DNA from: a virus
IMG/VR virus record: IMGVR_UViG_3300038318_000230
Coordinates: 1 to 14,043 of that record
Reading direction: 5' to 3' (one strand)
DNA: 14,043 nt
Below are positions 1 to 14,043 of the stretch, piece by piece; the stretch's first letter is position 1, and each line of letters opens with the position of its first letter. A model generated the notes under the pieces. The model did no database searches. It was given only the letters and a program-made list of their open reading frames with translations, and was not told the DNA's origin. The translations under genes were made by a program, and so were the position numbers.

Positions 1-99
1 TGGCGCATGAATTGGAAGCGACCTTATACGAAGTGCTTACAGGAGCCTTTACAGCAGCCCAGGCGACCATTAAAAAGAATTATGATGTAATACCCGCCG
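1..99. repeat. Terminal overlap, copy 1 (identical to 13945-14043); signature of a circular molecule or assembly
   Basis: A base-by-base comparison of 1-99 with 13945-14043 shows 99/99 identity. The repeat lies inside the parA coding sequence. Confidence 0.9.
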
Positions 100-614
100 A
101 CATACGATTAAGCGGCGCAGAGCTTGAATTAAGCAGCCAACCGGGGCGAGAAATGATATTAAAAGAAGCCTTGCAGCCAATACAAGCAAATTATGACTAT
201 ATTCTTATAGATTGCCCGCCAAGCTTAGGCCTTATTACTCTTAATGGTTTAACGGCAGCGCAAGAAATATTTATACCATTGCAAGCCGAGTTTTTAGCAC
301 TTAACGGCATGGCGCAGCTCTTAAAAACTATTGGCGCAGTACAAAAGAGATTGAACCCACAGTTAGATATTAGCGGCATTATAACAACCTTGTATGATAG
401 CCGGAAGAACTTAAACAAGGAAGTATTAGAGAAGATACAGCAGTATTTCCCGGATAAGGCATTTAAGACGCTAATACGCGACAATGTGGCCTTAGCAGAA
501 GCCCCAAGCTTTGGCAAAGATATATTTGAGTATAGGGCAGACAGCAACGGCGCGGAAGATTATAAGCAGCTTAGTAAAGAAATAATCATACAGGAAACGG
601 AGGTTAAACAATGA
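1..614 (+). CDS. parA: ParA/Soj-family partition ATPase, C-terminal part (continues from 13791-14043 across the circular junction)
   Basis: Position 12 equals 13956 in the repeat, and 13956-13791 is divisible by 3, so the frame is continuous. The first complete codon in the window starts at 3. The sequence includes ILIDCPPSLGLITLNGLTAA and the C-terminal ...AEAPSFGKDIFEY..., typical of Soj/ParA. The TGA stop is at 612-614. Full length across the junction is about 255 aa. Confidence 0.9.
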   Translation, partial: AHELEATLYEVLTGAFTAAQATIKKNYDVIPADIRLSGAELELSSQPGREMILKEALQPIQANYDYILIDCPPSLGLITLNGLTAAQEIFIPLQAEFLALNGMAQLLKTIGAVQKRLNPQLDISGIITTLYDSRKNLNKEVLEKIQQYFPDKAFKTLIRDNVALAEAPSFGKDIFEYRADSNGAEDYKQLSKEIIIQETEVKQ

Positions 615-937
615 GTAATAAGGATAATAGGAAAATGGGAACGGATCCGTTGGCCTGGATCAACCAAGAGCCGGAGCAGGCCGAGCCGGTAAAGCCAGAA
701 AAAGAGTTAAGACAAAAGCAAGGTAGGCCACGCACTATATACCGGGAGTATGAAAAGACAAGTCAAGAGGGTTTACCGGATAATTACACGCGAGCAACCT
801 TTATTGTAAGAGAGGACTTATTAAAAATGCTCAAAGATTACGCATACACCGAAAGAGAAACCTTGAAAGATACCGTTAATAAAATGATTGCTCAGTTTTT
901 AGAAGGCAAGGAGATCATAGAAAGGAATGATAAATAA
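611..937 (+). CDS. Small partition partner / centromere-binding protein candidate (ribbon-helix-helix-like, ParG/omega-like)
   Basis: Its ATG overlaps the parA stop (ATGA), suggesting translational coupling. It is 108 aa, with a charged, probably disordered N-terminus. The C-terminal TRATFIVREDLLKMLKDYAYTERETLKDTVNKMIAQFLEG fits a strand-helix-helix (RHH) pattern. Its position directly after parA is typical of type Ib partition loci. Confidence 0.55.
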   Translation: MSNKDNRKMGTDPLAWINQEPEQAEPVKPEKELRQKQGRPRTIYREYEKTSQEGLPDNYTRATFIVREDLLKMLKDYAYTERETLKDTVNKMIAQFLEGKEIIERNDK

Positions 938-1131
938 TGAAGCAGTTTGGTGACATTAGATTTTATGACGTGCAGGAAATAGCAAAAACCTTTGATATGA
1001 CACCACAGAGTATAAGGAAGTTTTTCAAGGAAGGCCGCATAAAAGCGCGCAAGTTTGGTACACGTTGGTATGTTACAGAAGAAGCCATGAGGGAATACCT
1101 TTTAGGCATTGATAATGATAATATGAAATAA
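937..1131 (+). CDS. Excisionase/AlpA/MerR-type helix-turn-helix DNA-binding protein
   Basis: 64 aa. FYDVQEIAKTFDMTPQSIRKFFKEGRIKARKFGTRWYVTEEAMREYL matches the Xis-type HTH pattern (LT..E.A..L.VS..TI....K.G.I.A.K.G..W.I....L..YL). Its start overlaps the upstream stop (TAATG). Confidence 0.7.
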   Translation: MKQFGDIRFYDVQEIAKTFDMTPQSIRKFFKEGRIKARKFGTRWYVTEEAMREYLLGIDNDNMK

Positions 1132-1132
1132 G

Positions 1133-1195
1133 ATGTTTACCACGTTTACAATGTTTATTGTGTTTACTAATATTACTATGTTTACTAATATTACT
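1133..1195 (+). repeat. Seven tandem 9-bp repeats (consensus ATGTTTACT); candidate centromere and/or operator array
   Basis: Units are 1133 atgtttacc, 1142 acgtttaca, 1151 atgtttatt, 1160 gtgtttact, 1169 aatattact, 1178 atgtttact and 1187 aatattact. The array lies between the par operon and the 517-aa gene. It overlaps promoter-like hexamers: TTTACA 1145-1150/N17/TAATAT 1168-1173, and TTTACT 1163-1168/N17/TAATAT 1186-1191. Confidence 0.8.
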
Positions 1196-1213
1196 TTGAA
1201 GGGGTGATAACAA

Positions 1214-2767
1214 ATGATTGACTACACCAAGCAGGAAGAAGAAGCCTTATTAGCCATTGAAGAAAAATACAGGCCGGAACTTGAAACGGTTATGGCAGAA
1301 ATGAATAAATACGATATGAAAACCCAATGGGACGAGTATTTAGCAGTTTCCGACCGTTTCAACGAGATTAACGAAAAGATACAAGCCGAGCGTGACGTAT
1401 ATTTCAAGCGGGCAGAGTTGAGATCCTTTAATAGCTTCAAGGGCGACGTTGGGCGCATTGTGGAAGCGGTAAAAAATCAGATACCGTCGTTTATTTATAT
1501 CTCCAAGGTATTCGCAGGAGATGAGCCGACGAAAAAAGAGAGAACTGAAAGGCAAAAGCGGATTGAGAGGGAAAAGGAAAATCTAAAGAAAGCCATAGAA
1601 CATAATGAGAAGCTATTAGAAAAATTCCCGGACGATCAAGAGCTTATAAAAAATACAAATGAGCTGAAAGAGTCAAACCCGGAGAAAGTTTTACAATTCC
1701 ATTATGACGCCATTTATTCAGAGCAGGCATTACACGAAAGAATAAAAGATAGCTTTGCCATGTACTTTGAGTTTTTATCAAAAGTAGATCCAAAGGCATA
1801 TGACGAGCTGCAAATATTCATTGGTAAGGCCATTAAAGCGCGCGACAATATAAAACCTTCAGACATAAACGCTAAAGAACTAAGCCCGGCGGCCATGATA
1901 AACACTAAGTACCCTGCAAACTTCTTAAGCCCAACGGACAAAGTAACAAGCCTTGCCTTTGCCGGAGAGCTTACAGGCGATCAATTACAACAGTTGGCAA
2001 TGGAACGCAGGGGCAGCAAGAAACAAATTACAACCCTTGCAAGTATTGATTTTGATAACCTTAACGGATCCGTACAAATAAAAGGCCGTCGAGAGCTTAC
2101 CGCCTATGATAGAGAGGTACACGACGCTATTATTACCCTTTTTATTGATGGCGGCAACGAGTACATAACCCCGCAAATGATATACCAGGTTATGACCGGA
2201 AACCCAGACGCATACCTTAACCCAAAGCAGGCCGAAGCGATCAGCGATAGTATAACCAAATGTATGTATAGCAAACTTACTATAGACGCAGGCGAGGAAG
2301 CCAAGGCATACGGCTTTGACAGTTTCAAGTATGACGGCAACCTTATAAGCGGCGAAAGAGTTACAGCAACCTTAAACGGAAATGTACTTGAATGTTTGCG
2401 CATATTAAGGCCGCCAGTTTTATATGAGTATGCTAATAAAAAGAACCAGATAGGACGCTTTGACATTAAGCTATTGAACAGCCCAATAAACAAGACCGAG
2501 GAAATTATAACGCTGCAAGGCTATTTATACCGCCGGATCCTATCCATGAAGGGCAGCAGCACCCTAAGCAAAACCATTGTTTATGATACAGTCTATAATC
2601 AGATTGAAGTAACGGCAGCAAGTGACGGAGCCTTAAGAAAGAAAAAGTCAAAGGTACGTGACCAAATAAAAAAGATATTGGACTACTGGAAGCAAGAAGA
2701 TTTTATATTGGGTTATGTAGAAAACAAACGCGGCCAAGTTGTTTACAGCGTTACCATAAGAGTATAA
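1214..2767 (+). CDS. Putative iteron-binding replication initiator (N-terminal coiled-coil region plus C-terminal winged-helix-like region); family not recognised
   Basis: 517-aa ORF with an AAGGGG ribbon-binding site about 8 nt upstream. Its stop codon (2765-2767) sits 3 nt before a 4x 22-bp iteron array. C-terminal segments (TAYDREVHDAIITLFIDGGNEYITPQMIYQVMTG and KVRDQIKKILDYWKQEDFILGYVENKRGQVVYSVTI) look like winged-helix DNA-binding units. The functional call rests on context. Confidence 0.45.
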   Translation: MIDYTKQEEEALLAIEEKYRPELETVMAEMNKYDMKTQWDEYLAVSDRFNEINEKIQAERDVYFKRAELRSFNSFKGDVGRIVEAVKNQIPSFIYISKVFAGDEPTKKERTERQKRIEREKENLKKAIEHNEKLLEKFPDDQELIKNTNELKESNPEKVLQFHYDAIYSEQALHERIKDSFAMYFEFLSKVDPKAYDELQIFIGKAIKARDNIKPSDINAKELSPAAMINTKYPANFLSPTDKVTSLAFAGELTGDQLQQLAMERRGSKKQITTLASIDFDNLNGSVQIKGRRELTAYDREVHDAIITLFIDGGNEYITPQMIYQVMTGNPDAYLNPKQAEAISDSITKCMYSKLTIDAGEEAKAYGFDSFKYDGNLISGERVTATLNGNVLECLRILRPPVLYEYANKKNQIGRFDIKLLNSPINKTEEIITLQGYLYRRILSMKGSSTLSKTIVYDTVYNQIEVTAASDGALRKKKSKVRDQIKKILDYWKQEDFILGYVENKRGQVVYSVTIRV

Positions 2768-2770
2768 CCG

Positions 2771-2867
2771 GGGGCATAAAGTGGTAACGGTAGGGGCATA
2801 AAGTGGTAACGGTAGGGGCATAAAGTGGTAACGGTAGGGGCATAAAGTGGTAACAAAGAAAGGGGCA
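2771..2867 (+). repeat. Iteron array: 22-bp direct repeat GGGGCATAAAGTGGTAACGGTA, 3 perfect copies plus an 18-nt fourth copy and a GGGGCA remnant; candidate origin of replication
   Basis: Copies are at 2771-2792, 2793-2814, 2815-2836 and 2837-2854 (truncated), with GGGGCA again at 2862-2867. The copies are contiguous with no spacers. The 22-bp period is about two helical turns. Confidence 0.85.
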
Positions 2868-2922: not shown

Positions 2923-2954
2923 TATAAGCTTTATAGGCTATATAAGCTTTATAG
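2923..2954 (+). repeat. Two copies of TATAAGCTTTATAG spaced 18 bp apart, in the origin-proximal AT-rich region
   Basis: 2923-2936 and 2941-2954 are identical. Each copy is centred on the palindrome AAGCTT. Confidence 0.7.
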
Positions 2955-2956: not shown

Positions 2957-3000
2957 GCGGTTGCGGCTTGCTTGACGCCGCCGCACCGCCTTAATATTAT
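2957..3000 (+). promoter_or_regulatory. GC-rich hairpin containing the -35 box of a putative promoter for the primase-helicase operon
   Basis: The stem GCGGTTGCGGC (2957-2967) pairs with GCCGCACCGC (2980-2989), leaving one bulged T. TTGACG at 2972-2977 lies in the loop. A 17-nt spacer precedes TATTAT at 2995-3000. Confidence 0.5.
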
Positions 3001-3058
3001 GGACTTAAGAAAAGAAAACTATACCCCCATGTGGGAACATTTTTAAGGAGTTGAGTTG

Positions 3059-4960
3059 ATGGAGCAATATAAAAATATTCCGGAGAGCCTAAAGCAGCTT
3101 AAGCAATGGGTATGCTTTAAGTTTGAACATAACGAAAAAAAGGGTAAGGCCGACAAGATACCAAAGGACCCGCGCACCGGCTATAATGCAAAGGCGAACG
3201 ATCCGGCGACATGGAGCGATTACCAAACGGCGGTTAATGCTTTGAGCAAATACGGCTTTGACGGTATAGGCATTGAGTTTGCAAACGGTATTTTTGGAGT
3301 TGATCTTGATAATGTTATTGAGGGCGGCAAACTTACAACAGAAGCCCAGGACATCATAAAGACATTGGACAGTTACACAGAATACAGCCCAAGCGGTACC
3401 GGCATACATATTTTATGTAAGGGATCCATACCGGACAAAGACAGGCGCAGGGGAAACGTTGAAATGTATTCCGAAGGGCGATTTTTCACAGTAACCGGGA
3501 AAGTTGTAGGAGCTGCAAAGGAAGTACAAGAAAGAACAGCCCAGGCCGCAGCCGTCCACGCCAAATATTTAAGGCGGGAAGAAGCACCAAAAGCGACTAA
3601 TCAGCCGCAGGATCTTAATATTTCAGATAGTGAACTTATTAGCAAGGCCATGAGTGCGAGAAACGGCGATATATTCCGGGCATTATGGAATGGCAATATA
3701 AGCGGTTATAATTCACAGAGTGAAGCAGATTTAGCCTTATGTAATTTGTTGGCGTACTGGACAAACGGCAATGCTTACCGCATGGACGCATTATTTAGAC
3801 AATCAGCATTATATAGAGAGGGCAAATGGAATAAAAGGCATGGAGCCGATACATACGGCAATATGACAATAAATAAGGCCTTAAGTGATTTTACCCCATA
3901 CGAAAGAACAGCCCCAGGCGCAGCAACGCCAGGAGCCGTACAAGGTAATACTTCAAATTCATTATACCAAAGCGGCCAGGATCCGCAAATAACATTGAAA
4001 GATAATTTAGTAAGCCAATATTTAGAAGATGTTTTTATAAAGGACATTGACAAGTTTAAGAGCTACAAAGACCGTAAGACAGGATTTAAGAACCTGGACG
4101 AATTAACCGGTGGCTTATATCCGGGGCTTTATATTATAGGAGCCATTAGCAGCTTAGGCAAAACAACCTTTATACACCAAATGGGCGACCAGTTGGCGGC
4201 TATGGGCGATCATGTATTATTTTTCAGCCTGGAACAAAACCGCCTTGAAATGGTTACAAAGAGCTTAAGCCGCATTACAGCAAGGAACAACAAAGAAAAG
4301 GCAATAAGCGCAATTAAAATTAGGGGCGGCAGATTAACGCCGGAGGTATTGGCAGCCGCAGAAGAATATAACAAGATAGCCGACCATATAAGCGTTATAG
4401 AGTGTAATTTTGATGTAAATATCTATTCCATAATTGATTATACAAAACAGTACATGACAGCAACAGGAACAAAGCCGGTTGTAATAGTGGACTATTTACA
4501 GATCATACCGCCGACGGATCCACGCCAAAGCGATAAAGAAAAAACAGATAATATTGTAAGAGGGCTTAAGAAGCTGCAAAGCGAGAATGATTTAGTTGTA
4601 TTTGTTATCAGCAGCTTAAACCGGGCTAACTATTTACAGCCTATTGATTTTGAAAGCTTTAAGGAAAGCGGCGGCATTGAATATACCGCAGACGTTGTAT
4701 GGGGCTTACAGCTGCAAATACTTAATGATGATATATTCAACGGAGAGAAGAAAATAAAAGAGAAGCGGGAAAAAGTACGCATTGCAAAGAAGGCCATACC
4801 GCGAGAGATTGAATTAGTATGCTTAAAAAACCGTTACGGCGTCAGCTCTTATTCATGTGGGTTTAAGTATGATCCACGCTTTGACCTATTCGAGCCGGAC
4901 ACCCTTTACCAAGTGGCCGAGGATTTTAATATTACTATTGGCGACGGTAAAAGGAAGTGA
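3059..4960 (+). CDS. Bifunctional primase-polymerase (Prim-Pol) / PriCT-like / DnaB-like (RecA-fold) helicase fusion
   Basis: The N-terminus has QWVCFKF...KIPKDPRTG...GIGIEF...GVDLDNV...YTEYSPSGTGIHILCKG...VEMYSEGRFFTVTG, a Prim-Pol/AEP pattern. The middle has SQSEADLALCNLLAYWTNGNAYRMDALFRQSALYREGKW, which is PriCT-like. The C-terminus has Walker A GAISSLGKTT, Walker B VVIVDYLQII and VFVISSLNR, which is DnaB_C-like. ATG 3059 lies 8 nt after AAGGAG (3045-3050); the ORF-track start of 3056 is a TTG. Confidence 0.85.
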   Translation: MEQYKNIPESLKQLKQWVCFKFEHNEKKGKADKIPKDPRTGYNAKANDPATWSDYQTAVNALSKYGFDGIGIEFANGIFGVDLDNVIEGGKLTTEAQDIIKTLDSYTEYSPSGTGIHILCKGSIPDKDRRRGNVEMYSEGRFFTVTGKVVGAAKEVQERTAQAAAVHAKYLRREEAPKATNQPQDLNISDSELISKAMSARNGDIFRALWNGNISGYNSQSEADLALCNLLAYWTNGNAYRMDALFRQSALYREGKWNKRHGADTYGNMTINKALSDFTPYERTAPGAATPGAVQGNTSNSLYQSGQDPQITLKDNLVSQYLEDVFIKDIDKFKSYKDRKTGFKNLDELTGGLYPGLYIIGAISSLGKTTFIHQMGDQLAAMGDHVLFFSLEQNRLEMVTKSLSRITARNNKEKAISAIKIRGGRLTPEVLAAAEEYNKIADHISVIECNFDVNIYSIIDYTKQYMTATGTKPVVIVDYLQIIPPTDPRQSDKEKTDNIVRGLKKLQSENDLVVFVISSLNRANYLQPIDFESFKESGGIEYTADVVWGLQLQILNDDIFNGEKKIKEKREKVRIAKKAIPREIELVCLKNRYGVSSYSCGFKYDPRFDLFEPDTLYQVAEDFNITIGDGKRK

Positions 4961-4964: not shown

Positions 4965-5498
4965 ATGGCCTTAGAAGCGTTAAAACAATATGCAGAGGAA
5001 CAAAACCAAGCGACGCGGGCAGAAATTGAAAGGTTGACAAAAACCGACGTTCTAAAACGGTCTACAAGCGACGAAAAGGGCAGGGGTAATATAAAACCCT
5101 TAGTAAGTAAAGAAAACGTCACAGAAGCCTTACAGGAGCGTTTAGCGGGTACTTATAAAGAACACCAGGAGAACATAAGACGAGCGGGGCAATTAAGGGC
5201 AAATATTAACAAAAACATACAAGCCGGGGAGCCAATTTATAAAGTATTACTCAAAGCTATTGAATGTATAAGCCTTATGACAGGGGAAAAGCTCTTTTAT
5301 GATATGAACAAAGAGAACCTACAAACCATATACGGCATATTAGGAGAGCCGGAAGTAATAGAGGTTGAAAGGCAGGAAGTAAAGCAAAGGTTAAAAAACC
5401 TTATGGCAGCTTATGAGCGAGAGGAACAGGCCGACGCAAAGCAAAGAATTAAGAACGCCATAAAAGCGCACCAGGACAAATTAGAGAAAATACAGTAA
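4965..5498 (+). CDS. Hypothetical protein, charged and probably coiled-coil
   Basis: 177-aa ORF located 4 nt after the primase-helicase stop, on the same strand and followed by a terminator. No recognisable motif. Confidence 0.6.
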   Translation: MALEALKQYAEEQNQATRAEIERLTKTDVLKRSTSDEKGRGNIKPLVSKENVTEALQERLAGTYKEHQENIRRAGQLRANINKNIQAGEPIYKVLLKAIECISLMTGEKLFYDMNKENLQTIYGILGEPEVIEVERQEVKQRLKNLMAAYEREEQADAKQRIKNAIKAHQDKLEKIQ

Positions 5499-5503
5499 GA
5501 ACG

Positions 5504-5536
5504 ACGCAGGGCATTAAAAGCCTTGCGTTTATTTTT
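5504..5536 (+). terminator. Rho-independent terminator
   Basis: ACGCAGGGC (5504-5512) pairs with GCCTTGCGT (5520-5528), with one G-U pair and a 7-nt loop. It is followed by TTTATTTTT. Confidence 0.7.
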
Positions 5537-5586
5537 ATTACTATGTTTACTTAGTAAATTATATAAACAAAGTAATTTTAGTAACC
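5525..5586. repeat. 9-bp-phased array of the GTTTAC/GTAAAC motif that switches orientation at about 5551
   Basis: Forward units are 5525 gcgtttatt, 5534 tttattact and 5543 atgtttact. Inverted, degenerate cores follow at 9-bp steps: GTAAAT 5554, ATAAAC 5563, GTAATT 5572 and GTAACC 5581. Further cores are ATAAAC 5592 and GTAAAC 5603 (11-bp steps). GTTTAC-tta-GTAAAT forms a local inverted repeat. Confidence 0.6.
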
Positions 5587-5597
5587 ACAAAATAAAC

Positions 5598-5626
5598 TTG
5601 ACGTAAACATTAAAGTATGATATATT
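5598..5626 (+). promoter_or_regulatory. Putative promoter of the csp-like/portal/capsid operon, with the 13-mer GTAAACATTAAAG (5603-5615) in its spacer
   Basis: TTGACG at 5598-5603, a 17-nt spacer, then TATATT at 5621-5626, preceded by TGa (extended -10). Confidence 0.6.
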
Positions 5627-5662: not shown

Positions 5663-5871
5663 ATGGAAAAGGGCAAAGGAATAGTTACAACAGTATTTCA
5701 AGATAAGGGCTTTGGATTTATCCGGCAGGATCCGACGGAACAGATATATATTTTCATGCAAGCGGGGTATGCAATCCGGAATTTAAGGACTTAAAGGAAG
5801 GTTACGAAGTGGAATACATGATAGTTGAGGTACCAAAGGGAACCAAGGCTATTGGCGTAGTAATGGTTTAA
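5663..5871 (+). pseudogene. Cold-shock-domain (CspA-family) gene interrupted by a frameshift in an (AT)4-T4 tract
   Basis: Frame A (5663-5794) gives MEKGKGIVTTVFQDKGFGFIRQDPTEQIYIF, then unrelated residues and a stop at 5792-5794. The -1 frame from 5752 gives FHASGVCNPEFKDLKEGYEVEYMIVEVPKGTKAIGVVMV, with its stop at 5869-5871. Joined, the two parts match the CSD pattern (KGFGFI...IFHAS...F..L.EG.EV.F....KG..A..V). Restoring one T in the T-run 5751-5754 gives an intact 69-aa CSD. The ribosome-binding site GGAAG is at 5651-5655. Confidence 0.75.
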
Positions 5872-5883: not shown

Positions 5884-6063
5884 ATGGAATACTCAACGAT
5901 TAAATTCAAAGATGGCGAAGTATTACATAACGTTAAGCCTTGTTATGAAGCCCCAGAGATATTAGGCTTTATAGCCGTATGGATAGACAACAAGGTATAT
6001 TACTTTAATTTAGACATTATCAGCCATTTAGTAATGAATGAAATGTACTTAGAACGGTGGTGA
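5884..6063 (+). CDS. Hypothetical small protein (59 aa; below the ORF-track cutoff)
   Basis: ATG 5884 is preceded by AAGGTGGAG (5872-5880), and the TGA stop is at 6061-6063. It fills the gap between the csp-like gene and the portal gene. The product is MEYSTIKFKDGEVLHNVKPCYEAPEILGFIAVWIDNKVYYFNLDIISHLVMNEMYLERW. Confidence 0.5.
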   Translation: MEYSTIKFKDGEVLHNVKPCYEAPEILGFIAVWIDNKVYYFNLDIISHLVMNEMYLERW

Positions 6064-6067
6064 AAGA

Positions 6068-7255: not shown

Positions 7256-7642
7256 ATGGATATTAAAGCAGAGGTATACAGGTATATAAAAGAAAATGAG
7301 GGTACCAGTTACGCGGAGCTTGAATATTTGTTTGACCGGTTGGGCTTTGACTGGAAAGGCGAATTAGAAATATATAGCGACGTATGCGACAACGTTATAT
7401 TTTGGACAGGTTGGAGCAAGGAAGCCATAGAGTTAATAAACGACTTGCAGAGGGACGAGCTTATAAGCAAGGTACCAGGGCAGCCGTTTATATACTTCAT
7501 AGATGGAAAGGCCTTAAATTTACCGATAGTAAAGACCAACAGGCAATATAAAACCCCGCATTGGCTACCAGTGTTATTTACAGCCAGGCGCAAGAGCCTT
7601 AAGCAGATTATAAAAGAGGTTGAACAGGAGGTAGGAATATGA
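7256..7642 (+). CDS. Hypothetical protein inserted between portal and prohead protease
   Basis: 128-aa ORF, tightly packed; its stop overlaps the protease start (ATGA at 7639-7642). The N-terminus (VYRYIKENEGTSYAELEYLFDRLG) looks like a possible winged helix. No confident family assignment. Confidence 0.6.
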   Translation: MDIKAEVYRYIKENEGTSYAELEYLFDRLGFDWKGELEIYSDVCDNVIFWTGWSKEAIELINDLQRDELISKVPGQPFIYFIDGKALNLPIVKTNRQYKTPHWLPVLFTARRKSLKQIIKEVEQEVGI

Positions 7643-8208
7643 AAGAGCTTAGAATATGCGAAATAAGAGCCAACGACCCGGCAGGATCCGACGGCCTTAT
7701 ATTAGAGGGTATGCCGATTGTTTACGATCAGCCTACCACGATAAACGACCCGGCAGGGAAGTATATCGAAATTATAAGGAGTGGAGCATTAGACCAGGCA
7801 GACCTAAGCGACGCCAGGCTATTGTATAACCACGACTTAAACAAAGTACCGTTAGCAAGGACACCTAAAACAATGCAATTTGTTAAGGATCCGGCAGGCC
7901 TTAAGATGATTGCAAACTTACCGGACACAACAGAAGCCAAAAGCGTACATACGGCAGTAATGCGCGGGGATCTATCCGGTATGAGCTTTGCTTTTAAGGT
8001 ACCAGTTGGCGGCGACAGTTACGACGCAGCGACGAACACCAGGACAATAACAAAAATTGAAAAGGTATACGAAATATCAGTTGTACCATTCCCGGCGTAC
8101 CCGCAAACAAGCGTTGAAGCAAGAGCAGCCATACAAGCGGTGAAAGATGATCCATTGAGAGCAGCCGCAAAAATACGTATAAACCAAATTTTAATGAAAG
8201 AGGTATGA
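7639..8208 (+). CDS. HK97-family prohead (capsid maturation) protease
   Basis: 189 aa. The N-terminal pattern ICEIRAND...LILEGMPIVYDQPT and LLYNHDLNKVPLART resemble HK97 gp4-type proteases. It lies between the portal and the major capsid protein genes. Confidence 0.8.
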   Translation: MKELRICEIRANDPAGSDGLILEGMPIVYDQPTTINDPAGKYIEIIRSGALDQADLSDARLLYNHDLNKVPLARTPKTMQFVKDPAGLKMIANLPDTTEAKSVHTAVMRGDLSGMSFAFKVPVGGDSYDAATNTRTITKIEKVYEISVVPFPAYPQTSVEARAAIQAVKDDPLRAAAKIRINQILMKEV

Positions 8209-8212
8209 TGAT

Positions 8213-9448
8213 ATGAAATTTAAGACTATTGCAGAAGCATTTAACCATTATATGAACAGTTCTATTGCAGACATTGAGAAAAGAGCAGCAGAGATTAAAA
8301 CCCTTGTTGATACCGACGCCAACGCCGACATTGCAAGCCTTAATATTGAGCTTGAAGGGTTGAAGCAGGCAAAGGCCAACGTTGAACAGAGAAGCCAAAA
8401 GCAGCAACAGCAATTTAACCCTATTACCGGCGCAAGCTTTGAAACAAGAGCAAGCCAGGAAGCCACAGAAGGGGACGTATTCGCAAGCGCAGAGTACCGC
8501 AGCGCGTTTTATAAGAACCTTTTAGGGCATAAGCTTACAGAACATGAGGACGCAGCTTATAAGCGCGCTATGGGCGTTGTGGAAGCAGAAAAGAGAGCAG
8601 ACGCATTTAACACCGTAACAAGCGCAGCCGCAGTATTGCCAACAGCTACCTTAAACGAGGTAATTAAAAAGGCACGTACTATGGGCGGTTTATTGCCAGT
8701 ATGTAGAGGGTTTAACCTTCCTACTAAGTTAAGCGTACCAGTTGGAACACCGGCGACTAAAGCAGCATGGCACACAGAGGGCGCAGCCGTTGAAACTGAA
8801 AAGAATACAACCGTCGCCGTTTCCTTTGGCGGTTATGAAATCCTTAAAGTATTCTCCATCAGCGCAGCAGCTAAGAAAATGAGTATTTCAGCCTTTGAAA
8901 ACTACATCATTGACGAGCTTAACGCTTGCGTAATGGAATGTATTGCCGATAGCCTTGTAAACGGTACAGGGGAAGCACAGGGAACAGGTTTAGAAACTAT
9001 TACCTGGACAGCAGGAACAAACGCCGTTGAATACACCAACGGAGCTATTCCTACCTATGCAAACTTTGTTAGTACAATGGCATTGCTTAAGAGAGGTTAC
9101 AACGCCGGGGCTAAGTGGGCTATGAATAACGCAACACTTTATACCCATGTATACGGCATTGTAGACCAAAATAAGCGACCTATCTTTATAGCGGATCCAA
9201 AGAATGAAAGTATTGGTTATATCTTAGGCCGAGAGGTTGTTATTGATGATAACATTGCCGACGGTGACATTTACTTAGGTAACTTTAACTATATGGGCTA
9301 TAACATTCCAGAAGGCATTGTAATTGAAGTATCAAGAGAAAGCAGCTTTAAGAGCGGCCTAATTGATTACAGAGCAATGGCAATAGCGGATTGTAAGCCA
9401 ATCGTTGCAGAAGCCTTTGTTAAGTTGTCAGAAGCGGCCATAGGCTAA
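8213..9448 (+). CDS. HK97-fold major capsid protein with N-terminal delta (scaffolding) domain
   Basis: 411 aa. The first ~100 aa are coiled-coil (IADIEKRAAEIKTL...LEGLKQAKANVEQ), followed by the capsid body. It sits directly downstream of the protease, which is the classical HK97 arrangement. Confidence 0.85.
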   Translation: MKFKTIAEAFNHYMNSSIADIEKRAAEIKTLVDTDANADIASLNIELEGLKQAKANVEQRSQKQQQQFNPITGASFETRASQEATEGDVFASAEYRSAFYKNLLGHKLTEHEDAAYKRAMGVVEAEKRADAFNTVTSAAAVLPTATLNEVIKKARTMGGLLPVCRGFNLPTKLSVPVGTPATKAAWHTEGAAVETEKNTTVAVSFGGYEILKVFSISAAAKKMSISAFENYIIDELNACVMECIADSLVNGTGEAQGTGLETITWTAGTNAVEYTNGAIPTYANFVSTMALLKRGYNAGAKWAMNNATLYTHVYGIVDQNKRPIFIADPKNESIGYILGREVVIDDNIADGDIYLGNFNYMGYNIPEGIVIEVSRESSFKSGLIDYRAMAIADCKPIVAEAFVKLSEAAIG

Positions 9449-9464
9449 GGCCTAACTATATTGT

Positions 9465-9494
9465 AAGGGGTATTGGTAATAGGCCAGTACCCTT
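9465..9494 (+). terminator. Possible attenuating hairpin downstream of the capsid gene
   Basis: AAGGGGTATTGG (9465-9476) pairs with CCAGTACCCTT (9484-9494), with one bulge and one wobble pair. It is followed by the moderately T-rich TTACTTT. Confidence 0.35.
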
Positions 9495-9519
9495 TACTTT
9501 AATAAGGAGTTGATTGTAT

Positions 9520-9792
9520 ATGACATTAGACCAGGCAAGAGAATTTTTAAGAGTAGACGGCACAGACAACGACATAATCATATTATCCTTACTGGACGCA
9601 ATACCGGGCTATATAGAAGTTACTACAGGCATGACAGCAGCACAGCAGGAAGCGGAGCCGTTAGCAACAACAGCCGGTAAGTTTATATTAAAGCTATGGT
9701 ATAACGCAGAGCAGACAGACAGCGAGAAGTTGCAAAGGACTATTGACGGATTGCTTAAAGCTCTTACAGTAATGGCAAGGCCAACAGCATGA
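9520..9792 (+). CDS. gp6-like head-tail connector (head completion) protein
   Basis: MTLDQAREFLRVDGTDNDIIILSLLDAIPGYIEVTTG is the typical N-terminus of the phage gp6-like head-tail connector family. ATG 9520 lies 10 nt after AAGGAG (9504-9509); the ORF-track start of 9514 is a TTG only 4 nt from the ribosome-binding site. Confidence 0.75.
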   Translation: MTLDQAREFLRVDGTDNDIIILSLLDAIPGYIEVTTGMTAAQQEAEPLATTAGKFILKLWYNAEQTDSEKLQRTIDGLLKALTVMARPTA

Positions 9793-10127
9793 AGGACTAT
9801 GCAAGAAGCTTTTATAAGGGTAAGGCATGGAAAGATACACAGGCGGCTTACATGAGCAGCCAACATTATATATGTGAACGTTGTGGGGACATAGCAAAGA
9901 TAGTACACCATAAGAAGTATATAACACCGGAGAATATAACGGATCCTTATATAACTTTACATTGGGATAACTTAGAAGCACTATGCCAGGATTGCCATAA
10001 TAAGGAACACAGCAGCGCGGATATATGCGCAGATGGATTGAGCTTTAACAGTAAGGGCGAATTAGTTTATACCCCCGCCAAGTTAAAAGACAACGACAGC
10101 CCAGGGACCGGAGGGGGAAGTTCTTAA
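9789..10127 (+). CDS. HNH endonuclease (packaging-associated)
   Basis: CERCG...IVHHKKYITPENITDP...WDNLEALCQDCHNKEH shows the Cys pairs and the H-N-H core. Its ATG overlaps the connector stop (ATGA). It lies immediately upstream of the terminase genes, as in HK97-like cos phages. Confidence 0.85.
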   Translation: MKDYARSFYKGKAWKDTQAAYMSSQHYICERCGDIAKIVHHKKYITPENITDPYITLHWDNLEALCQDCHNKEHSSADICADGLSFNSKGELVYTPAKLKDNDSPGTGGGSS

Positions 10128-10193
10128 AACCCCTCTTTGGTTTTTTATATTAGGGGTGGGGTAAACATTAAATAAACGTCCAGTAATAAGGCG
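10126..10193 (+). promoter_or_regulatory. HNH-terS intergenic region: weak hairpin, inverted repeat, candidate promoter and candidate cos region, carrying the motif GTAAACATTAAAT (10161-10173)
   Basis: AAAACC (10126-10131) pairs with GGTTTT (10139-10144) and is followed by a T-run. ACCCCT (10129-10134) and AGGGGT (10152-10157) form an inverted repeat. TATATT at 10146-10151 lies 9 nt upstream of the motif, the same spacing as at the 13526 promoter. The only -35 candidate is weak (TTCTTA 10121-10126, N19). Confidence 0.4.
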
Positions 10194-10202
10194 GTGAAAT
10201 AT

Positions 10203-10550
10203 ATGGAGATAGACAGAGATAAGGAATTATTAAGACTTAAAAGACAATTTAACAAGATATTGAAACAGGTGCCGGAAGATAAGAAGCCGATAGCGCAGAG
10301 CCTTATAAAAGAGCTTACCTTCATGGCCTTAACCCTGGACGATCTTAAGCTACAGGTACAAGAAGGCGGCACCGTTGAATTATTCAAACAAGGCAAGCAG
10401 GAATTTTTAAGGGAAAGCCCGGCACTAAAAGCCTATAACACCACAGTCCAACGTTACAGCTTGCTTTATAAGCAATTAACCGACCTATTACCCAAGGCAG
10501 CCCAGGACGCACAGGAAAACGCCTTATACGAGTTTATAAAGGCTAACTAA
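10203..10550 (+). CDS. terS: Putative terminase small subunit (P27-like by size and position)
   Basis: About 115 aa, helical, directly upstream of the large terminase and downstream of HNH. ATG 10203 is preferred (AAGGCGG 10186-10192 lies 10 nt upstream); the ORF-track start of 10194 is a GTG abutting the ribosome-binding site. Confidence 0.6.
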   Translation: MEIDRDKELLRLKRQFNKILKQVPEDKKPIAQSLIKELTFMALTLDDLKLQVQEGGTVELFKQGKQEFLRESPALKAYNTTVQRYSLLYKQLTDLLPKAAQDAQENALYEFIKAN

Positions 10551-10554
10551 GGCG

Positions 10555-12207
10555 GTGGAGATAGTGAACTATATAGAACAATATTACAACGAAATCAACA
10601 ACGGCCAATGTATTGTTTCTGCAAGGGTACGGAAGCAGTACGAAAAGCTTGTTGATGATATAAAGAACCCTAAAGGCGATTATAAGTTTGACGAGGGTAA
10701 GGCGACCAGGCCTATAAGGTTTATAGAGCAATTTTGTAAGCACTCTAAAGGGGAATGGGCGGGAAAGCCGGTTATATTGGAACTATTTCAAAAGGCTTAT
10801 ATATCCGCCTTATTTGGTTTTATTCATGTGGAAACAGGGTTAAGGAAATACCGGGAAACTATGTTTATGGTAGGCCGCAAGAATGGCAAGTCAACCATGC
10901 TTGCCGGTATTGCTCTTTATATGATGGTTGCAGATAACGAGCCAGGCAGTGAGGTTTACAGTACAGCAACCAAGAAGGACCAGGCGCGTATTATCTTTGA
11001 TGAAACCCATAACATGGTTAAGCAAAGCCCGGACATTACCAAGTTTATAAAGAAGCGCAAGAGCGATTTATATTTTCCTTTGACAATGAGCAAATTTCAA
11101 CCGTTGGGGAAGAATAGCGACACCCTGGACGGCCTTAATGCTCATTGTGTCATTATGGACGAGCTGCACAGCGTAAAAGACAGGAACCTTTACGAAGTTA
11201 TGAAGCAGAGCCAGAGCGCAAGACGGCAGCCATTACTTGTAATGATTACGACGGCCGGGACGGTCAGAGAATGTATATTTGATGATATGTACGCCTATGC
11301 TTGTAGCGTCGTTGATGAAACCTTTAAGGACGATACATTTTTACCTATGATCTATGAATTGGACAACCGGGAGGAATGGAAGGATCCTAAAGCATGGGAG
11401 AAGGCAAACCCAGGCTTAGGCACTATCAAGAAGCTTGACGACCTCATAAACAAGGTTGAGAGAGCCAAGAACAGCCCCAAAGACCTAACCGGTATATTGG
11501 TAAAGGACTTTAATATAAGAGATACCATTAGTACAGCCTGGTTAAGCTTTGATGATATTAACAATGAGAAAACCTTTAATATAGCACGATTTAGGAATTG
11601 TTACGCCATTGGCGGCGCGGACCTTAGTATTACCACAGACTTAACGGCGGCCACGCTCTTAATGATGGATAAGGACACCGAGGAACGCTTTGTAACTCAA
11701 ATGTATTGGCTACCTAAAGATAGCTTTGAACAGCGCGTACAGATTGAAAAAATACCTTATGATAAATGGTATGAGCAGGGCTTAATAAGGCTTTGTAATG
11801 GCAATTCAATCAATTACGGCGATGTTACAGCCTGGTTTTTAGAGATGGTAAACGAGAAGGGTATAACGCCGGCCTGGATCTATTACGATAGCTACAGCGC
11901 AAAGTATTGGGTTGAGGAAATGGAGAATTACGGCTTTAACATGGTACGCTGCATACAGGGAGCCAAGACCTTAAGCTTACCTATGCAGAAGATGGGCGCG
12001 GATCTTCAAGCCAAGAAGATAAATTATAACAATAACCCTATTCTTAAATGGTGCCTTACCAATACCGGCATACAGACCGACAGGAACGGCAATATAGTGC
12101 CTATAAAGGCGCAGAGTGCCAAACAGCGTATAGATGGTACTTCAAGCCTATTAAACGCCTATGTGGGCTTATATGAGCATTATAACGAGTTTATAAACGC
12201 CTTGTAA
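10555..12207 (+). CDS. terL: Terminase large subunit (ATPase plus RNaseH-like nuclease)
   Basis: Walker A VGRKNGKST, Walker B CVIMDELH, nuclease-domain acidic motifs (IGGADLSITTDLTA, YYDSYSA). About 550 aa. The start is ambiguous between GTG 10555 and GTG 10564. Confidence 0.9.
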   Translation: MEIVNYIEQYYNEINNGQCIVSARVRKQYEKLVDDIKNPKGDYKFDEGKATRPIRFIEQFCKHSKGEWAGKPVILELFQKAYISALFGFIHVETGLRKYRETMFMVGRKNGKSTMLAGIALYMMVADNEPGSEVYSTATKKDQARIIFDETHNMVKQSPDITKFIKKRKSDLYFPLTMSKFQPLGKNSDTLDGLNAHCVIMDELHSVKDRNLYEVMKQSQSARRQPLLVMITTAGTVRECIFDDMYAYACSVVDETFKDDTFLPMIYELDNREEWKDPKAWEKANPGLGTIKKLDDLINKVERAKNSPKDLTGILVKDFNIRDTISTAWLSFDDINNEKTFNIARFRNCYAIGGADLSITTDLTAATLLMMDKDTEERFVTQMYWLPKDSFEQRVQIEKIPYDKWYEQGLIRLCNGNSINYGDVTAWFLEMVNEKGITPAWIYYDSYSAKYWVEEMENYGFNMVRCIQGAKTLSLPMQKMGADLQAKKINYNNNPILKWCLTNTGIQTDRNGNIVPIKAQSAKQRIDGTSSLLNAYVGLYEHYNEFINAL

Positions 12208-12220
12208 GGGAGTGAAAAAG

Positions 12221-12589
12221 ATGGCAAGTGGAAACGTGCTTAAGGACAAGAAAATAACAATTTACAAAACTATGGGGAGCCAAAACGAAGTAGGGGACTG
12301 GATAGCAAACTACCAACCTATACACCCCGGCAAATTGTGGGCTTATGTAAGGCAGTTATCAGCTAAAGAATACTTTGCAGCCGCGCAAGTGCAGAACAAG
12401 GAAGAAATGCTCTTTACCGTTAATTGGCGGCCAGATATAACCCCGCAAATGTACATTGAGTATAAAGGCGTTTGGTATGATATACAGCGCGTTGATACCT
12501 TCGAGGGCTACAAGGAGAATTTACACCTTTACGCAAGTCAAACAGTAAGGCCGCCGGATCCAAGCGACATTATACCGTATGGATCCTAA
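12221..12589 (+). CDS. Head-tail adaptor / head closure protein (SPP1 gp16-like, Phage_H_T_join type)
   Basis: KKITIYK......NEVGDW.....PIHPGKLWAYVRQLSAKEYFAAAQVQNKEEMLFTVNWRPDITPQMYIEYKGVWYDIQRVD matches the family pattern (itI......de.G......vwA.v.plsg.E...a.q......f.ir.r.dit...ri.y.g..y.I..v). ATG 12221 lies 8 nt after AAGGGAG; the ORF-track start of 12212 is a GTG. Confidence 0.75.
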   Translation: MASGNVLKDKKITIYKTMGSQNEVGDWIANYQPIHPGKLWAYVRQLSAKEYFAAAQVQNKEEMLFTVNWRPDITPQMYIEYKGVWYDIQRVDTFEGYKENLHLYASQTVRPPDPSDIIPYGS

Positions 12590-12611: not shown

Positions 12612-12650
12612 AACCCTATGCCGTCATGGTATGGGGTTTTTCTCTTTTAT
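12612..12650 (+). terminator. Rho-independent terminator
   Basis: AACCCTATGCC (12612-12622) pairs with GGTATGGGGTT (12628-12638), giving 11 bp including two G-U pairs and a 5-nt loop. It is followed by TTTTTCTCTTTTATTTT. Confidence 0.7.
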
Positions 12651-12659
12651 TTTACTTTT

Positions 12660-12686
12660 ATGTTTACTATGTTTATTTATTTTACA
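12660..12686 (+). repeat. Three 9-bp-phased ATGTTTAC-type repeats just upstream of a promoter
   Basis: Units are 12660 atgtttact, 12669 atgtttatt and 12678 tattttaca. This is the same unit and period as the array at 1133-1195. Confidence 0.65.
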
Positions 12687-12694
12687 AATAACGC

Positions 12695-12750
12695 TTGACT
12701 TTGAAATAACCATGTAGTAATATGTCATTAAAGATAGGTAAACATTAAAG
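12695..12750 (+). promoter_or_regulatory. Putative promoter of the two-gene accessory cassette, followed by the 13-mer GTAAACATTAAAG (12738-12750)
   Basis: TTGACT at 12695-12700, a 17-nt spacer, then TAATAT at 12718-12723. The motif begins 14 nt after the -10 box. Confidence 0.6.
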
Positions 12751-12785: not shown

Positions 12786-13139
12786 ATGAACAAGACAGTA
12801 AACGAAGTAACGGCAGCAAACGTTACTGAAAGAAACTTAGGGCATGGATTGTTTGAAACACGCACAGCCATTAAGAACGCACTTGTAAAGCTTGATAAGG
12901 CCGATACTATATTAAGCCATTGGGTACAGGAATACGGCTTTTCAGAAAAACCAGATCCAAGAGCAGCGACAACATGGAGCGCGAAAGTACCGGACAGGAA
13001 CAACCCGGACAGAGCCGGAGAGCAGGCCTTTAAATGGTATTGGGAGTACAACACTATTTTTAACTTTGTAGATATGGCCTTTGATTACATAATGGAAACC
13101 CAAAAAATATTAAATGAAGCTATGGAAAGTGAGGTATAG
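12786..13139 (+). CDS. Hypothetical protein (accessory cassette gene 1)
   Basis: 117-aa ORF with AAGGAG (12771-12776) 9 nt upstream of the ATG. No recognisable motif. Confidence 0.6.
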   Translation: MNKTVNEVTAANVTERNLGHGLFETRTAIKNALVKLDKADTILSHWVQEYGFSEKPDPRAATTWSAKVPDRNNPDRAGEQAFKWYWEYNTIFNFVDMAFDYIMETQKILNEAMESEV

Positions 13140-13455
13140 AGCATTGAAGAAACAAGTCATAGAAACCGCCAAAAGCTTAAGGGAACAGTTAGGCGGTACA
13201 ATATTTTCATTCCCAATAGAAGCAGATAACCCCTTTTCACCTTATGCCGTTGTTGTGTATGCAGAGGGTAAATACTTTGTCTATCCGGAAGCAACGGACA
13301 TATCAGAAGCAGCAACCGGAGTGCTTACGATCCTTGAAGAATTTAAGAAGATAGGCATGGCAAAGGACTATAACAAAGATGTACGCATGATAACATATCA
13401 GCCCCAAATGGACGCACCAAGCGTTACAATGCGCCGCTTAAAACGAGGATATTAA
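13114..13455 (+). CDS. Hypothetical protein (accessory cassette gene 2); start uncertain
   Basis: The ORF is open from 13114, but that ATG lacks a ribosome-binding site and overlaps the upstream gene by 26 nt. TTG 13144, preceded by GTGAGG (13129-13134), is an alternative start. A terminator follows. Confidence 0.55.
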   Translation: MKLWKVRYRALKKQVIETAKSLREQLGGTIFSFPIEADNPFSPYAVVVYAEGKYFVYPEATDISEAATGVLTILEEFKKIGMAKDYNKDVRMITYQPQMDAPSVTMRRLKRGY

Positions 13456-13459
13456 GCCA

Positions 13460-13500
13460 AAAGGCGGCCAGGGTTAAAACCTTAGTCGCCTTTATTTGTT
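13460..13500 (+). terminator. Rho-independent terminator
   Basis: AAAGGCG (13460-13466) pairs with CGCCTTT (13487-13493). Inner pairing (AGGGTT/AACCTT) extends the stem. It is followed by ATTTGTT. Confidence 0.55.
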
Positions 13501-13501
13501 C

Positions 13502-13553
13502 TTGACAACCAATAACCCATAATAGTATAATGTTACCCAAGTAAACATTAAAT
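13502..13553 (+). promoter_or_regulatory. Putative promoter of the orf72-parA-RHH-HTH operon, followed by the 13-mer GTAAACATTAAAT (13541-13553)
   Basis: TTGACA at 13502-13507, an 18-nt spacer, then TATAAT at 13526-13531. The motif begins 9 nt after the -10 box. Confidence 0.65.
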
Positions 13554-13569
13554 AAAAGGAGGGTAAAAC

Positions 13570-13788
13570 ATGGATCATGTGATTGAAGCTATGCAGCCGC
13601 ATTACGAGGTTTTATTAGATTGGTTTATCGAGGAACACAAAAGAGAGAAGCATAAAAAGCTATCTGATAATGTTTACTATGAAGAAATTAAGGCCTTAAT
13701 TGACGCTATGAACATTTTAAGAAAATACTTAGGTTGGGATAGTATCAAGTTATCAGACGAGGTTAAATTCAGATTGGAGGGATATTGA
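13570..13788 (+). CDS. Hypothetical small protein, first gene of the partition operon
   Basis: 72-aa ORF with AAGGAGGG (13556-13563) upstream. It ends 2 nt before the parA ATG. Confidence 0.6.
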
Positions 13789-13790
13789 GC

Positions 13791-14043
13791 ATGACGCGTA
13801 TTATAGCACTTGTAAACCAAAAGGGCGGCGTAGGTAAAACCACAAGTACAATAAATATAGGAGCTGCACTTGCAAAGGCCGGTAAACGTGTTTTATTGGT
13901 TGACCTGGATCCGCAGGGGAATTTAACCGTTAGCTTAGGCATAATGGCGCATGAATTGGAAGCGACCTTATACGAAGTGCTTACAGGAGCCTTTACAGCA
14001 GCCCAGGCGACCATTAAAAAGAATTATGATGTAATACCCGCCG
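13791..14043 (+). CDS. parA: ParA/Soj-family partition ATPase, N-terminal part (runs off the window end and continues at 1-614)
   Basis: ATG 13791 lies 9-10 nt after GGAGG (13776-13780). [44 protein letters not shown] contains the deviant Walker A KGGxGKT. Confidence 0.9.
13945..14043. repeat. Terminal overlap, copy 2 (identical to 1-99)
   Basis: 99/99 identity with 1-99. Confidence 0.9.

Follow-up and report, generated by a model that had tools for sequence, protein, structure and literature searches.

Can a genome that encodes a complete virus head and the enzymes needed to fill it, with no recognisable tail gene, be kept in its host as a plasmid? The question is raised by IMG/VR virus record IMGVR_UViG_3300038318_000230, of which positions 1 to 14,043 (the window) were analysed here at full length. 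A preliminary description, made from the letters of the window alone, had proposed a closed 13.9-kb circle carrying an HK97-type head and packaging set on a partitioned iteron replicon, a satellite comparable to the phage-inducible chromosomal islands that form capsids (cf-PICIs) but with a lifestyle not described before. Its central observation was confirmed: the window corresponds to a closed circle on which a head and packaging module is combined with a plasmid backbone, and nothing else on it could be named. We favour, with a probability of roughly 0.7, the view that the window holds the whole genome of a capsid-forming satellite that lives as an episome (a satellite-plasmid) in an anaerobic host of the phylum Bacillota. 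An iteron replicon and a partition system similar to type Ib would maintain it, and its transfer in small heads of its own making would depend on siphophage tails and on lysis provided from elsewhere. The host would probably belong to the Clostridia.

Bases 1-99 of the window are an exact duplicate of positions 13945-14043, so that the unit is 13,944 bp. This terminal repeat falls within parA, and the 257-aa ParA open reading frame (ORF), with its full AAA_31 domain, can only be read across the junction. An exact-protein look-up led to an independent assembly of the European Nucleotide Archive, ERZ27283064, in which contig k119_233321 (L001; other loci are also designated by L numbers) has 14,019 nt and a 119-nt terminal overlap, and shows 100% identity to the 14,043-nt window. 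Its break point is located inside the primase gene, and it is shorter by 44 bp, that is, two iterons. Since two assemblies with different break points yield the same circle, the circle is not an accident of a single assembly. The sole difference between them is iteron number (3.8 copies of the 22-bp unit in the window, about 1.8 in L001, at about 12317-12356 of that contig), which could be either a true copy-number polymorphism or an assembly collapse. Every credible gene lies on the + strand, and coding sequence makes up 92.7% of the circle; the minus-strand ORFs were discarded as antisense artefacts of the purine-rich coding strand. Over the whole length the cumulative GC skew climbs monotonically and the AT skew is strongly positive, with no turn-over marking a terminus, a pattern that fits the location of all genes on one purine-rich strand. 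Megablast of the entire circle against phage and plasmid records returned zero matches, and nothing was found on it by Rfam (E up to 0.1) or by tRNA and tmRNA scans.

The head and packaging module was defined with Pfam and PHROGs (coordinates throughout are those of the window; genes, promoter-like sites and terminators are on the + strand). It includes a portal protein (6068..7249; PF04860, 2.6e-57, model positions 3-321 of 321), an HK97-type prohead serine protease S78 (7639..8208; E 2.4e-32), an HK97-fold major capsid protein (MCP; 8213..9448; PF05065, 1.6e-35, residues 140-405), in which a region of ~135 aa preceding the capsid domain is probably a delta/scaffold domain, the gp6-like head-tail adaptor Ad1 (9514..9792; phrog_40, 1.5e-7, and PF05135 at 5e-4, marginally below the cut-off), an HNH endonuclease of HNH-TerS-TerL packaging of the HK97 cos type (9789..10127; E 2.3e-7), the large terminase TerL (10555..12207; ATPase and nuclease domains in Pfam, PHROG 1e-160) and the head closure or completion protein Hc1 (12212..12589; PF05521, 2.5e-17), whose surface is expected to face the tail. 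These seven members of the set listed in the preliminary description were thus recovered by profile searches, and the eighth, the small terminase TerS (10194..10550), stays putative: it is assigned by its position and by homology to the corresponding slot of cf-PICIs, is 44-91% identical to its counterpart between HNH and TerL in every relative, falls in phrog_1066, of unknown function (1.7e-33), and had no match to a TerS family in Pfam. A strong intrinsic-terminator-like hairpin found by sequence scan (12612..12638) closes the operon, whose first gene (5663..5871), missing from the preliminary description, encodes a cold-shock domain according to Pfam and to the comparison with relatives. 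In both assemblies this gene lacks 1 nt within a T/C run near 5750, which leaves a 43-aa ORF and the remainder in another frame, while it is intact (73-87 aa) at the same position in L085, L094 and L099-L101. Pseudogenisation, recoding or a sequencing error could account for this.

Tail, baseplate, lysin, holin, integrase, resolvase and cI/Cro (HTH_3) functions, said to be absent in the preliminary description, were indeed not found when the products were scanned with Pfam, PHROGs, NCBIfam and PADLOC. A tyrosine-integrase hidden Markov model built from the relatives had zero matches in the element, no hydrophobic stretch of membrane-helix length was present among the + strand products, the ORFs left without assignment gave no significant match in NCBIfam and PADLOC, and Phage_AlpA had no match either; neither was a master repressor resembling the Stl or cI proteins of cf-PICIs found. 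A recombinase hidden among the hypothetical ORFs was considered and rejected: the 517-aa product p517 is predicted to fold as an iteron initiator (see below), the 182-aa tyrosine recombinase of some relatives has no trace in the element, and no other unassigned ORF is long enough. With regard to that enzyme, a short (~180 aa) tyrosine recombinase consisting of the catalytic domain only is encoded within the packaging module, beside HNH and TerS, in some relatives with ParA and some with an integrase. It was seen in L048 (10460-11008), L059 (4687-5235) and L088-L093, and also in L017, L018, L022, L012, L034, L037 and L041. Its role might be the resolution of multimers, or an inversion or resolution event at cos.

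In place of those functions the circle carries what looks like a plasmid replicon. The protein p517 (1214..2767) had no Pfam, PHROG or NCBIfam match, and the profile of its family returned only coiled-coil noise against PDB sequences. An AlphaFold2 model based on an alignment of 33 homologues (mean confidence score, pLDDT, 75) has a helical N-terminal half and a C-terminal half made of two winged-helix-like units. In a Foldseek search of the PDB the top match was RctB domains 2-3 (5tbf/5ubf; probability 1.0, E 1e-4, with modest target template-modelling scores of 0.38-0.46), followed lower on the list by winged helices of other initiators and of origin recognition complex proteins. Domains 2-3 of RctB form a double winged helix and are the part of that protein that resembles plasmid iteron initiators. 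By this tandem winged-helix model, p517 looks like an iteron-type initiator. Conservation in its family is limited to the C-terminal ~300 aa, the N-terminal helical half being freely replaced, and the family is large: clustering at 50% identity leaves 3,087 representatives (830 at E<=1e-30); in PLSDB there was a single match, 28% identical, on an Anaerotruncus plasmid.

Four nucleotides past the p517 stop codon, the repeat scan located the origin iterons: 3.8 copies of the 22-bp unit GGGGCATAAAGTGGTAACGGTA, 100% identical (2771..2854). The 22-bp iterons of the preliminary description are thus real, in 3.8 perfect copies, and its Rep-like gene encodes a protein whose model matches RctB domains 2-3. 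Iterons directly follow the initiator stop in 16 of the 19 relatives checked, as about four 22-bp units of lineage-specific sequence; Tandem Repeats Finder detected none in L001, L082 and L083. Around 70 nt beyond the iterons, 3.4 copies of the 9-bp repeat TATAAGCTT (2923..2953, repeat scan) precede a GC-rich stretch and may be the origin element at which unwinding or helicase loading takes place. An identical array of this 9-mer, at the same offset, is present in 10 relatives (L002, L094, L085, L013, L008, L020, L059, L089, L051 and L084, the last of which is a non-capsid element) and near-identical ones in two further relatives. As p517, iterons and 9-mers keep their layout in most relatives, also in capsid-less elements and in a lineage with a Toprim-DnaB protein, they are read as an initiator-plus-origin unit. 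Neither the initiator nor the iterons come close to the TATAAGCTT array in conservation, and a different short repeat occupies its position next to a more divergent PrimPol-helicase or a Toprim-DnaB protein in L099 (CTATAAGTA), L007 and L053; it may be a loading site for the primase-helicase instead of a site for the initiator. A promoter-like site (2972..3000, TTGACG-17-TATTAT, promoter scan) lies ahead of the gene for that enzyme, a 634-aa PrimPol-type primase/polymerase fused to a DnaB-like helicase (3056..4960; NrS-1 HBD 1.9e-25, DnaB_C 7.5e-31, phrog_1829 DNA primase 3.4e-97), as anticipated in the preliminary description. The operon continues with p177 (4965..5498), a conserved partner of the primase-helicase gene with 45-85% identity in ParA-type relatives and no family match, and ends at a strong intrinsic-terminator-like hairpin (5503..5529, sequence scan).

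The second plasmid-like component is a partition operon that runs through the circle junction. Its promoter-like site (13502..13552, promoter scan) is of the perfect sigma-A type, TTGACA-18-TATAAT, and its first gene encodes p72 (13570..13788). It is followed by parA, whose 5' part (13785..14043) continues into positions 1..614, where 1-99 duplicate 13945-14043 (AAA_31 1e-64, CbiA 3.5e-29). The 257-aa product has a deviant Walker A motif (KGGVGKTT, residues 13-20), AAA_31 at residues 4-177 and no N-terminal helix-turn-helix (HTH), by which it is classified as a short, type Ib-like ParA; homologues occupy the same position in all ParA-type relatives. The adjoining gene, which overlaps the parA stop by 4 nt (611..937), encodes a 108-aa ParA partner without Pfam match, p108, a putative centromere-binding protein and global repressor. 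The preliminary description had called this partner similar to ribbon-helix-helix (RHH) proteins; the gene and its place beside parA stood, and its fold is plausible but unproven. Its 186 homologues share an invariant core, GRPRT...TRATFIVREDLLKxLKDYAYTER, with a strand-helix-helix pattern, the AlphaFold2 monomer model was poor (pLDDT 59), and the best PDB sequence match, covering the strand and both helices, was the RHH regulator SvtR (2kel) at a non-significant E of 0.5. The next gene, also absent from the preliminary description, encodes a 64-aa HTH_17 protein of the excisionase/MerR-like family (937..1131; PF12728 3.5e-9, excisionase PHROGs, weak TIGR01764; NCBIfam matches were all weak, E 0.002-0.009). 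As no cognate integrase accompanies it, the protein probably serves as a transcription factor. Some integrase-type relatives (L017, L012) have HTH_17-like ORFs of weak similarity among their early genes (29% identity in L017), and the gene may be a relic recruited as a regulator.

Partition, replication and head operons are connected by a common operator. The repeat arrays noted in the preliminary description are located at promoters and are conserved in relatives. Array A (1133..1195, + strand) consists of seven in-phase 9-bp units with the consensus ATGTTTACT and overlaps the promoter-like site of the initiator gene (1145-1173). Array B (5525..5614) has three direct and then several inverted 9-bp units and extends into the promoter-like site of the head operon (5598-5626, TTGACG-17-TATATT with an extended -10 TG). 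The region of array C (12640..12749) holds 9-bp units at 12642-12686, directly upstream of the promoter-like site of an accessory operon (12695-12723). The 9-bp motif ATGTTTAC has nine exact copies on the circle, eight of them in the 7% that is intergenic. A 12-mer, GTAAACATTAAA, occurs at 5603 (within array B), 12738 (array C region), 13541 (just past the -10 of the par promoter) and 10161, before terS, where the intergenic region between HNH and terS (10128..10193) is a candidate internal operator and/or cos region. Eight relatives carry the 12-mer at homologous sites; integrase-type elements do not. The ATGTTTAC motif is enriched where the strand of the p108 homologue reads TRATFI, including L046, which has no HTH_17 gene, and L059, which has a very different one; it is absent, or replaced by another motif (L048), where the strand reads QRATFI, VRATFI or otherwise. 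Because the motif co-varies with the putative beta-strand of p108, this protein is indicated as the operator binder, and the HTH_17 protein is less likely in that role since L046 keeps the motif without it. The conserved operator ahead of par, rep and capsid operons is a new feature of this element, to which p108 would bind.

A scan of IMG/VR with the MCP identified 80 loci that fall into three groups with the head and packaging module in common, so that the ParA-type family was recovered together with integrase-type relatives of the cf-PICI kind. ParA-type elements have ParA, p108, usually HTH_17, p517, iterons and the primase-helicase (L002, L053 and L059 with terminal overlaps); a second group has a tyrosine integrase and a cI-like HTH_3 repressor at the left end, as classical cf-PICIs, some of them in isolate genomes; and a third has a large serine recombinase with an HTH_3 repressor. 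No integrase was found in ~20 ParA-type relatives, while integrase-type ones always show one at the left end. The gene order of the circle is repeated on self-closing or terminally overlapping contigs of 12.5-14.5 kb from many samples (L002, L053, L059, L088/89, L094, L099-101), and further look-ups gave ParA-type circles of 13.5-14.6 kb, also from many samples, among them two contigs of 13,552 nt from different samples with different break points. One lineage appears in 50 collection blocks, in none of them on a contig longer than 20 kb. Overall the family comprises hundreds of metagenome contigs, with none in the GenBank phages of INPHARED or in PLSDB. A single scan of GTDB gave only distant ParA-p517-PrimPol cassettes without capsid genes, in metagenome-assembled genomes of Oscillospiraceae and Fretibacterium.

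The MCP is 60-87% identical to those of satellite-type relatives (60-70% when these bear an integrase or a serine recombinase). The best phage matches were 31.7% for the MCP, 55% for TerL and 35% for Hc1 (siphovirus Geobacillus E2), and the MCP matches in PLSDB were phage-plasmids of at least 31 kb (one Spiroplasma record of ~135 kb) with identities of 29% at most. These comparisons place the capsid module as a sister of that of integrase-bearing cf-PICIs. In a neighbour-joining tree of the MCP, which is indicative only as it has no support values, the ParA types form at least four clades interleaved with integrase types. The capsid genes, whose possible degeneration had been raised in the preliminary description, are all full length and under purifying selection: dN/dS against L002 and L094 is 0.05-0.36, most values being near 0.1, for all head, packaging, replication and partition genes with an estimable dS, and about 0.1 for the MCP. 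Against relatives the head and packaging module gave 0.05-0.2, and the genes of the plasmid backbone 0.08-0.26. Purifying selection coexists with mosaicism. Hc1 occurs as two allelic types with about 47% identity (the circle versus L094, L008 and L013), while TerL is near 90%, and ParA has been exchanged between the circle and L002 (43% identity). In cf-PICIs, experiments have shown that tail compatibility is set by swapping head-tail joining proteins between packaging modules that are otherwise identical (10.1101/2025.02.11.637232).

The ParA-p108-HTH17 unit is a plasmid cassette, found on a capsid-less circle too, a 9.7-kb element assembled as a tandem dimer. This element (L095, MTBK01274517.1, 19,702 nt; L096-L098) has a Xer-like recombinase, Toprim-DnaB, ParA-p114-HTH17 and DUF6075, with no capsid genes. 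The two head-to-tail copies in L095, which is listed in 84 collection blocks, are only 96.7% identical, and the element bears 7-10 copies of the ATGTTTAC motif. In addition, L102 (ERZ27257457, 12,460 nt) has ParA-p94-HTH17-p484-Toprim-DnaB, HNH genes and a HicB-like gene, with no recognisable capsid genes, and may be a capsid-less sibling of the satellite-plasmids L099-L101.

Taken as a satellite-plasmid, the element could work as follows. The 517-aa initiator would bind the 22-bp iterons that start 4 nt past its own stop codon, and the PrimPol-DnaB protein would prime and unwind at the origin just upstream of its gene. Short ParA and p108 would segregate the copies, presumably at low copy number. 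In the manner of omega of pSM19035 or KorB of RK2, p108 would bind the ATGTTTAC-type 9-bp arrays in two roles, as the protein that recognises the centromere and as a global repressor acting on four promoters (those of the initiator, head, accessory and par operons), and perhaps also at the site before terS. Upon derepression, a single long operon (5663-12589) would direct the assembly of a small HK97-type procapsid, probably T=4 by homology to cf-PICIs; HNH, TerS and TerL would cut concatemers and package one 13.9-kb unit, and Ad1 and Hc1 would close the head. Tails and lysis would be provided by a co-resident siphophage, or free tails would be met outside the cell. More tentatively, p108 might double as the master switch of the satellite: as the operator is common to these promoters and to the site before terS, one event that removed p108, for instance a helper-phage protein, would raise replication and fire capsid production together. 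Separately, the capsid lineage might have moved repeatedly among tyrosine-integrase, serine-integrase and ParA/Rep plasmid modes; we consider this extension rather doubtful.

Several facts weigh against the satellite-plasmid reading. The element is known from assembled sequence alone, its ParA-type relatives are all derived from metagenomes, and no helper phage is known for it. TerS is assigned by position and slot homology only, p108 has no proven RHH fold, a frameshift interrupts the first gene of the head operon, and no multimer-resolution recombinase was found in the element, while some relatives encode the 182-aa one. A circular or concatemeric assembly would equally be expected from a replicating, induced or packaged element. 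Finally, a close relative, L085 (ERZ922857; p517 75% identical), lies on a contig of 34,352 nt, in which the 10-kb flank upstream of parA has an IS21-like transposase/ATPase pair, DUF6431, a RelA_SpoT small alarmone synthetase and ECF sigma/anti-sigma genes; this may be an integrated copy, a cointegrate or a plasmid that has outgrown the small head. L086 is listed together with L085 in this respect.

The last points are those expected if the circle were an integrative island similar to cf-PICIs, caught while excised, replicating or packaged, with its recombinase acting in trans (the integrase of a helper, or host XerCD at a dif-like site). Such an origin would agree with the sister relationship of the capsid module to integrase-bearing cf-PICIs, with the retention of an excisionase-family HTH_17 gene and with the cellular-type genes next to L085, and metagenome assembly cannot separate a plasmid from an induced replicative form. 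We find it unlikely, given that the integrase is missing from the circle and from all of the ~20 ParA-type relatives, that int and the cI-like repressor are replaced by a conserved ParA-partner operon under purifying selection, which would have no role in an integrated island, and that the same par cassette is present on the 9.7-kb circle without capsid genes; moreover, no contig with ParA and the head module was seen to extend into chromosomal DNA, L085 having been read to the 10-kb flank. The missing helper and the frameshifted cold-shock gene could also be accounted for by a plasmid with a domesticated or decaying head module, either the remnant of a phage-plasmid or a maker of particles independent of any helper, similar to a gene transfer agent, and cf-PICIs have been reported to release tail-less capsids even without a helper (10.1101/2025.02.11.637232). 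This is hard to reconcile with head and packaging genes that are all full length and have low dN/dS, and with the retention, and the swapping among close relatives, of Ad1 and Hc1, which exist only for tail docking. Sizes are kept within 12.5-14.5 kb across lineages, as under a capsid-capacity constraint, and the MCP clusters with satellites and not with phages or phage-plasmids, so that this explanation seems to us improbable as well. Far less credit is due to the possibility that the circle results from misassembly or is part of a larger tailed phage genome. The 99- and 119-nt terminal repeats are of assembler k-mer sizes, for which reason circularity is a property of the assembly graphs alone; yet two assemblies with different break points agree, parA becomes whole across the junction, circles that match in size and content recur in many independent samples, and no relative has adjacent tail genes. 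A fragment of a larger phage was rejected on these grounds.

How does the satellite-plasmid compare with what is already known? The heads of cf-PICIs have T=4 symmetry and 47.5 nm, the EcCIEDL933 genome they hold has 15.5 kb, and only tails are taken from phages (10.1101/2022.09.08.507074, 10.1101/2025.02.11.637232). An integrase is part of their definition. The circle shares with them the head and packaging gene set (its own MCP, protease, portal and connectors, with HNH, TerS and TerL), a similar gene order, a size of ~13-15 kb, the absence of tail and lysis genes, capsid genes far from those of phages and clustering with satellites, and a tail-facing Hc1 that is swapped between close relatives. 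By analogy, its 13.9 kb would suit a T=4 head such as that of EcCIEDL933, in line with the small capsid suggested in the preliminary description. Unlike cf-PICIs, it has no integrase, att sites or cI/Stl-like repressor; as ParA, its partner and an iteron initiator replace them, the element is not a chromosomal island.

The lifestyle itself is no longer undescribed, contrary to the preliminary description. Capsid-forming satellite-plasmids (cf-PISP) of Vibrio were reported in a preprint of October 2025 and in Nat Commun 2026, the example being TG54, a circular extrachromosomal element of 15.8 kb with a cf-PICI head set, parA and repA and no integrase, and the authors found none outside Vibrio (PMC13230959). 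No other use of the satellite-plasmid concept was found in the literature searched. Since the concept has been described in Vibrio, the element is a new variant and not a new concept. Both are small circles with parA and rep, a complete cf-PICI-type head and HNH-terminase set and no tail or integrase genes, and in both the capsid protein is nested among satellite capsids and not phage capsids. They differ in that the circle belongs to the phylum Bacillota, has a capsid of the Firmicutes cf-PICI lineage and replicates, by prediction, through an RctB-like iteron initiator with PrimPol-DnaB, and in that the ProQ/FinO-like gene, the Stl-like gene and the internal tyrosine recombinase of the Vibrio cf-PISP were not detected in it. 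The circle also bears an operator common to par, rep and capsid promoters; it is known here from assemblies, and TG54 was compared by its description. Set apart from TG54 on that basis, the element would be a second, independently evolved example of a satellite-plasmid, now in anaerobic Firmicutes.

Other systems resemble parts of the circle. In type Ib partition systems (delta-omega of pSM19035, ParF-ParG of TP228), a short Walker-type ParA and a small partner act with arrays of 7-9 bp units. As in them, the gene next to that of the short ParA of the circle encodes a small protein whose N-terminus is basic and disordered and whose C-terminus is strand-helix-helix-like, and arrays of short direct or inverted units are located at several promoters, including those of par and rep; the arrangement of the operators is likewise similar to that of plasmid global regulators of the omega or KorB type. 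The differences are that there is no detectable sequence homology, that the RHH fold of p108 is putative and that one of the putative targets here is a virus head operon. With iteron initiators (RctB domains 2-3, RepA/RepE/pi), p517 has in common a predicted double winged-helix C-terminal half and the adjoining 22-bp direct repeats, but it falls outside the Rep families of Pfam and NCBIfam, has a long helical N-terminal domain and would work beside a PrimPol-helicase (Toprim-DnaB in L099) and not solely with host DnaB/DnaG. Satellite P4 can persist as a plasmid, but encodes an integrase and no capsid protein. Phage-plasmids likewise combine par/rep and virion genes, but carry complete virions with tail and lysis genes, which the circle does not have, and the PLSDB matches are at least 31 kb versus its 13.9 kb.

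According to a 2025 review on plasmid mobility, a plasmid nature had been demonstrated for just one satellite, though "many others may exist" (PMC12282955). In most surveys, an integrase and a place in the chromosome are what define a phage satellite. This element would be expected to escape satellite finders that ask for an integrase, to be classed as a plasmid by a plasmid finder and as an incomplete phage by a virus finder. The satellite-plasmid solution would have arisen independently in a second phylum and, if the capsid lineage does move among maintenance modes, satellite-plasmids could be a large class of mobile element so far overlooked in communities of anaerobic Firmicutes, and more than a peculiarity of Vibrio. 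The shared operator suggests a route by which a plasmid regulator could gate the production of virus heads, and p517 exposes a large family of initiators that has neither annotation nor a Pfam model.

The remaining genes of the circle are small. Upstream of the portal gene there is an ORF for p59 (5884..6063), also called as a gene in L001 and without family match, and between the portal and protease genes lies p128 (7256..7642), which belongs to phrog_7134, of unknown function (8.2e-32). The accessory region (12786..13455) is variable; in the circle it has two overlapping ORFs, p117 and p113, without family match, and its content differs among relatives. In L022 (11954-15112), a relative on whose contig no integrase was seen, it holds a gene for a 1,052-aa protein with TPR and PIN domains (PIN-TPR-GreABC type), which resembles anti-phage cargo.

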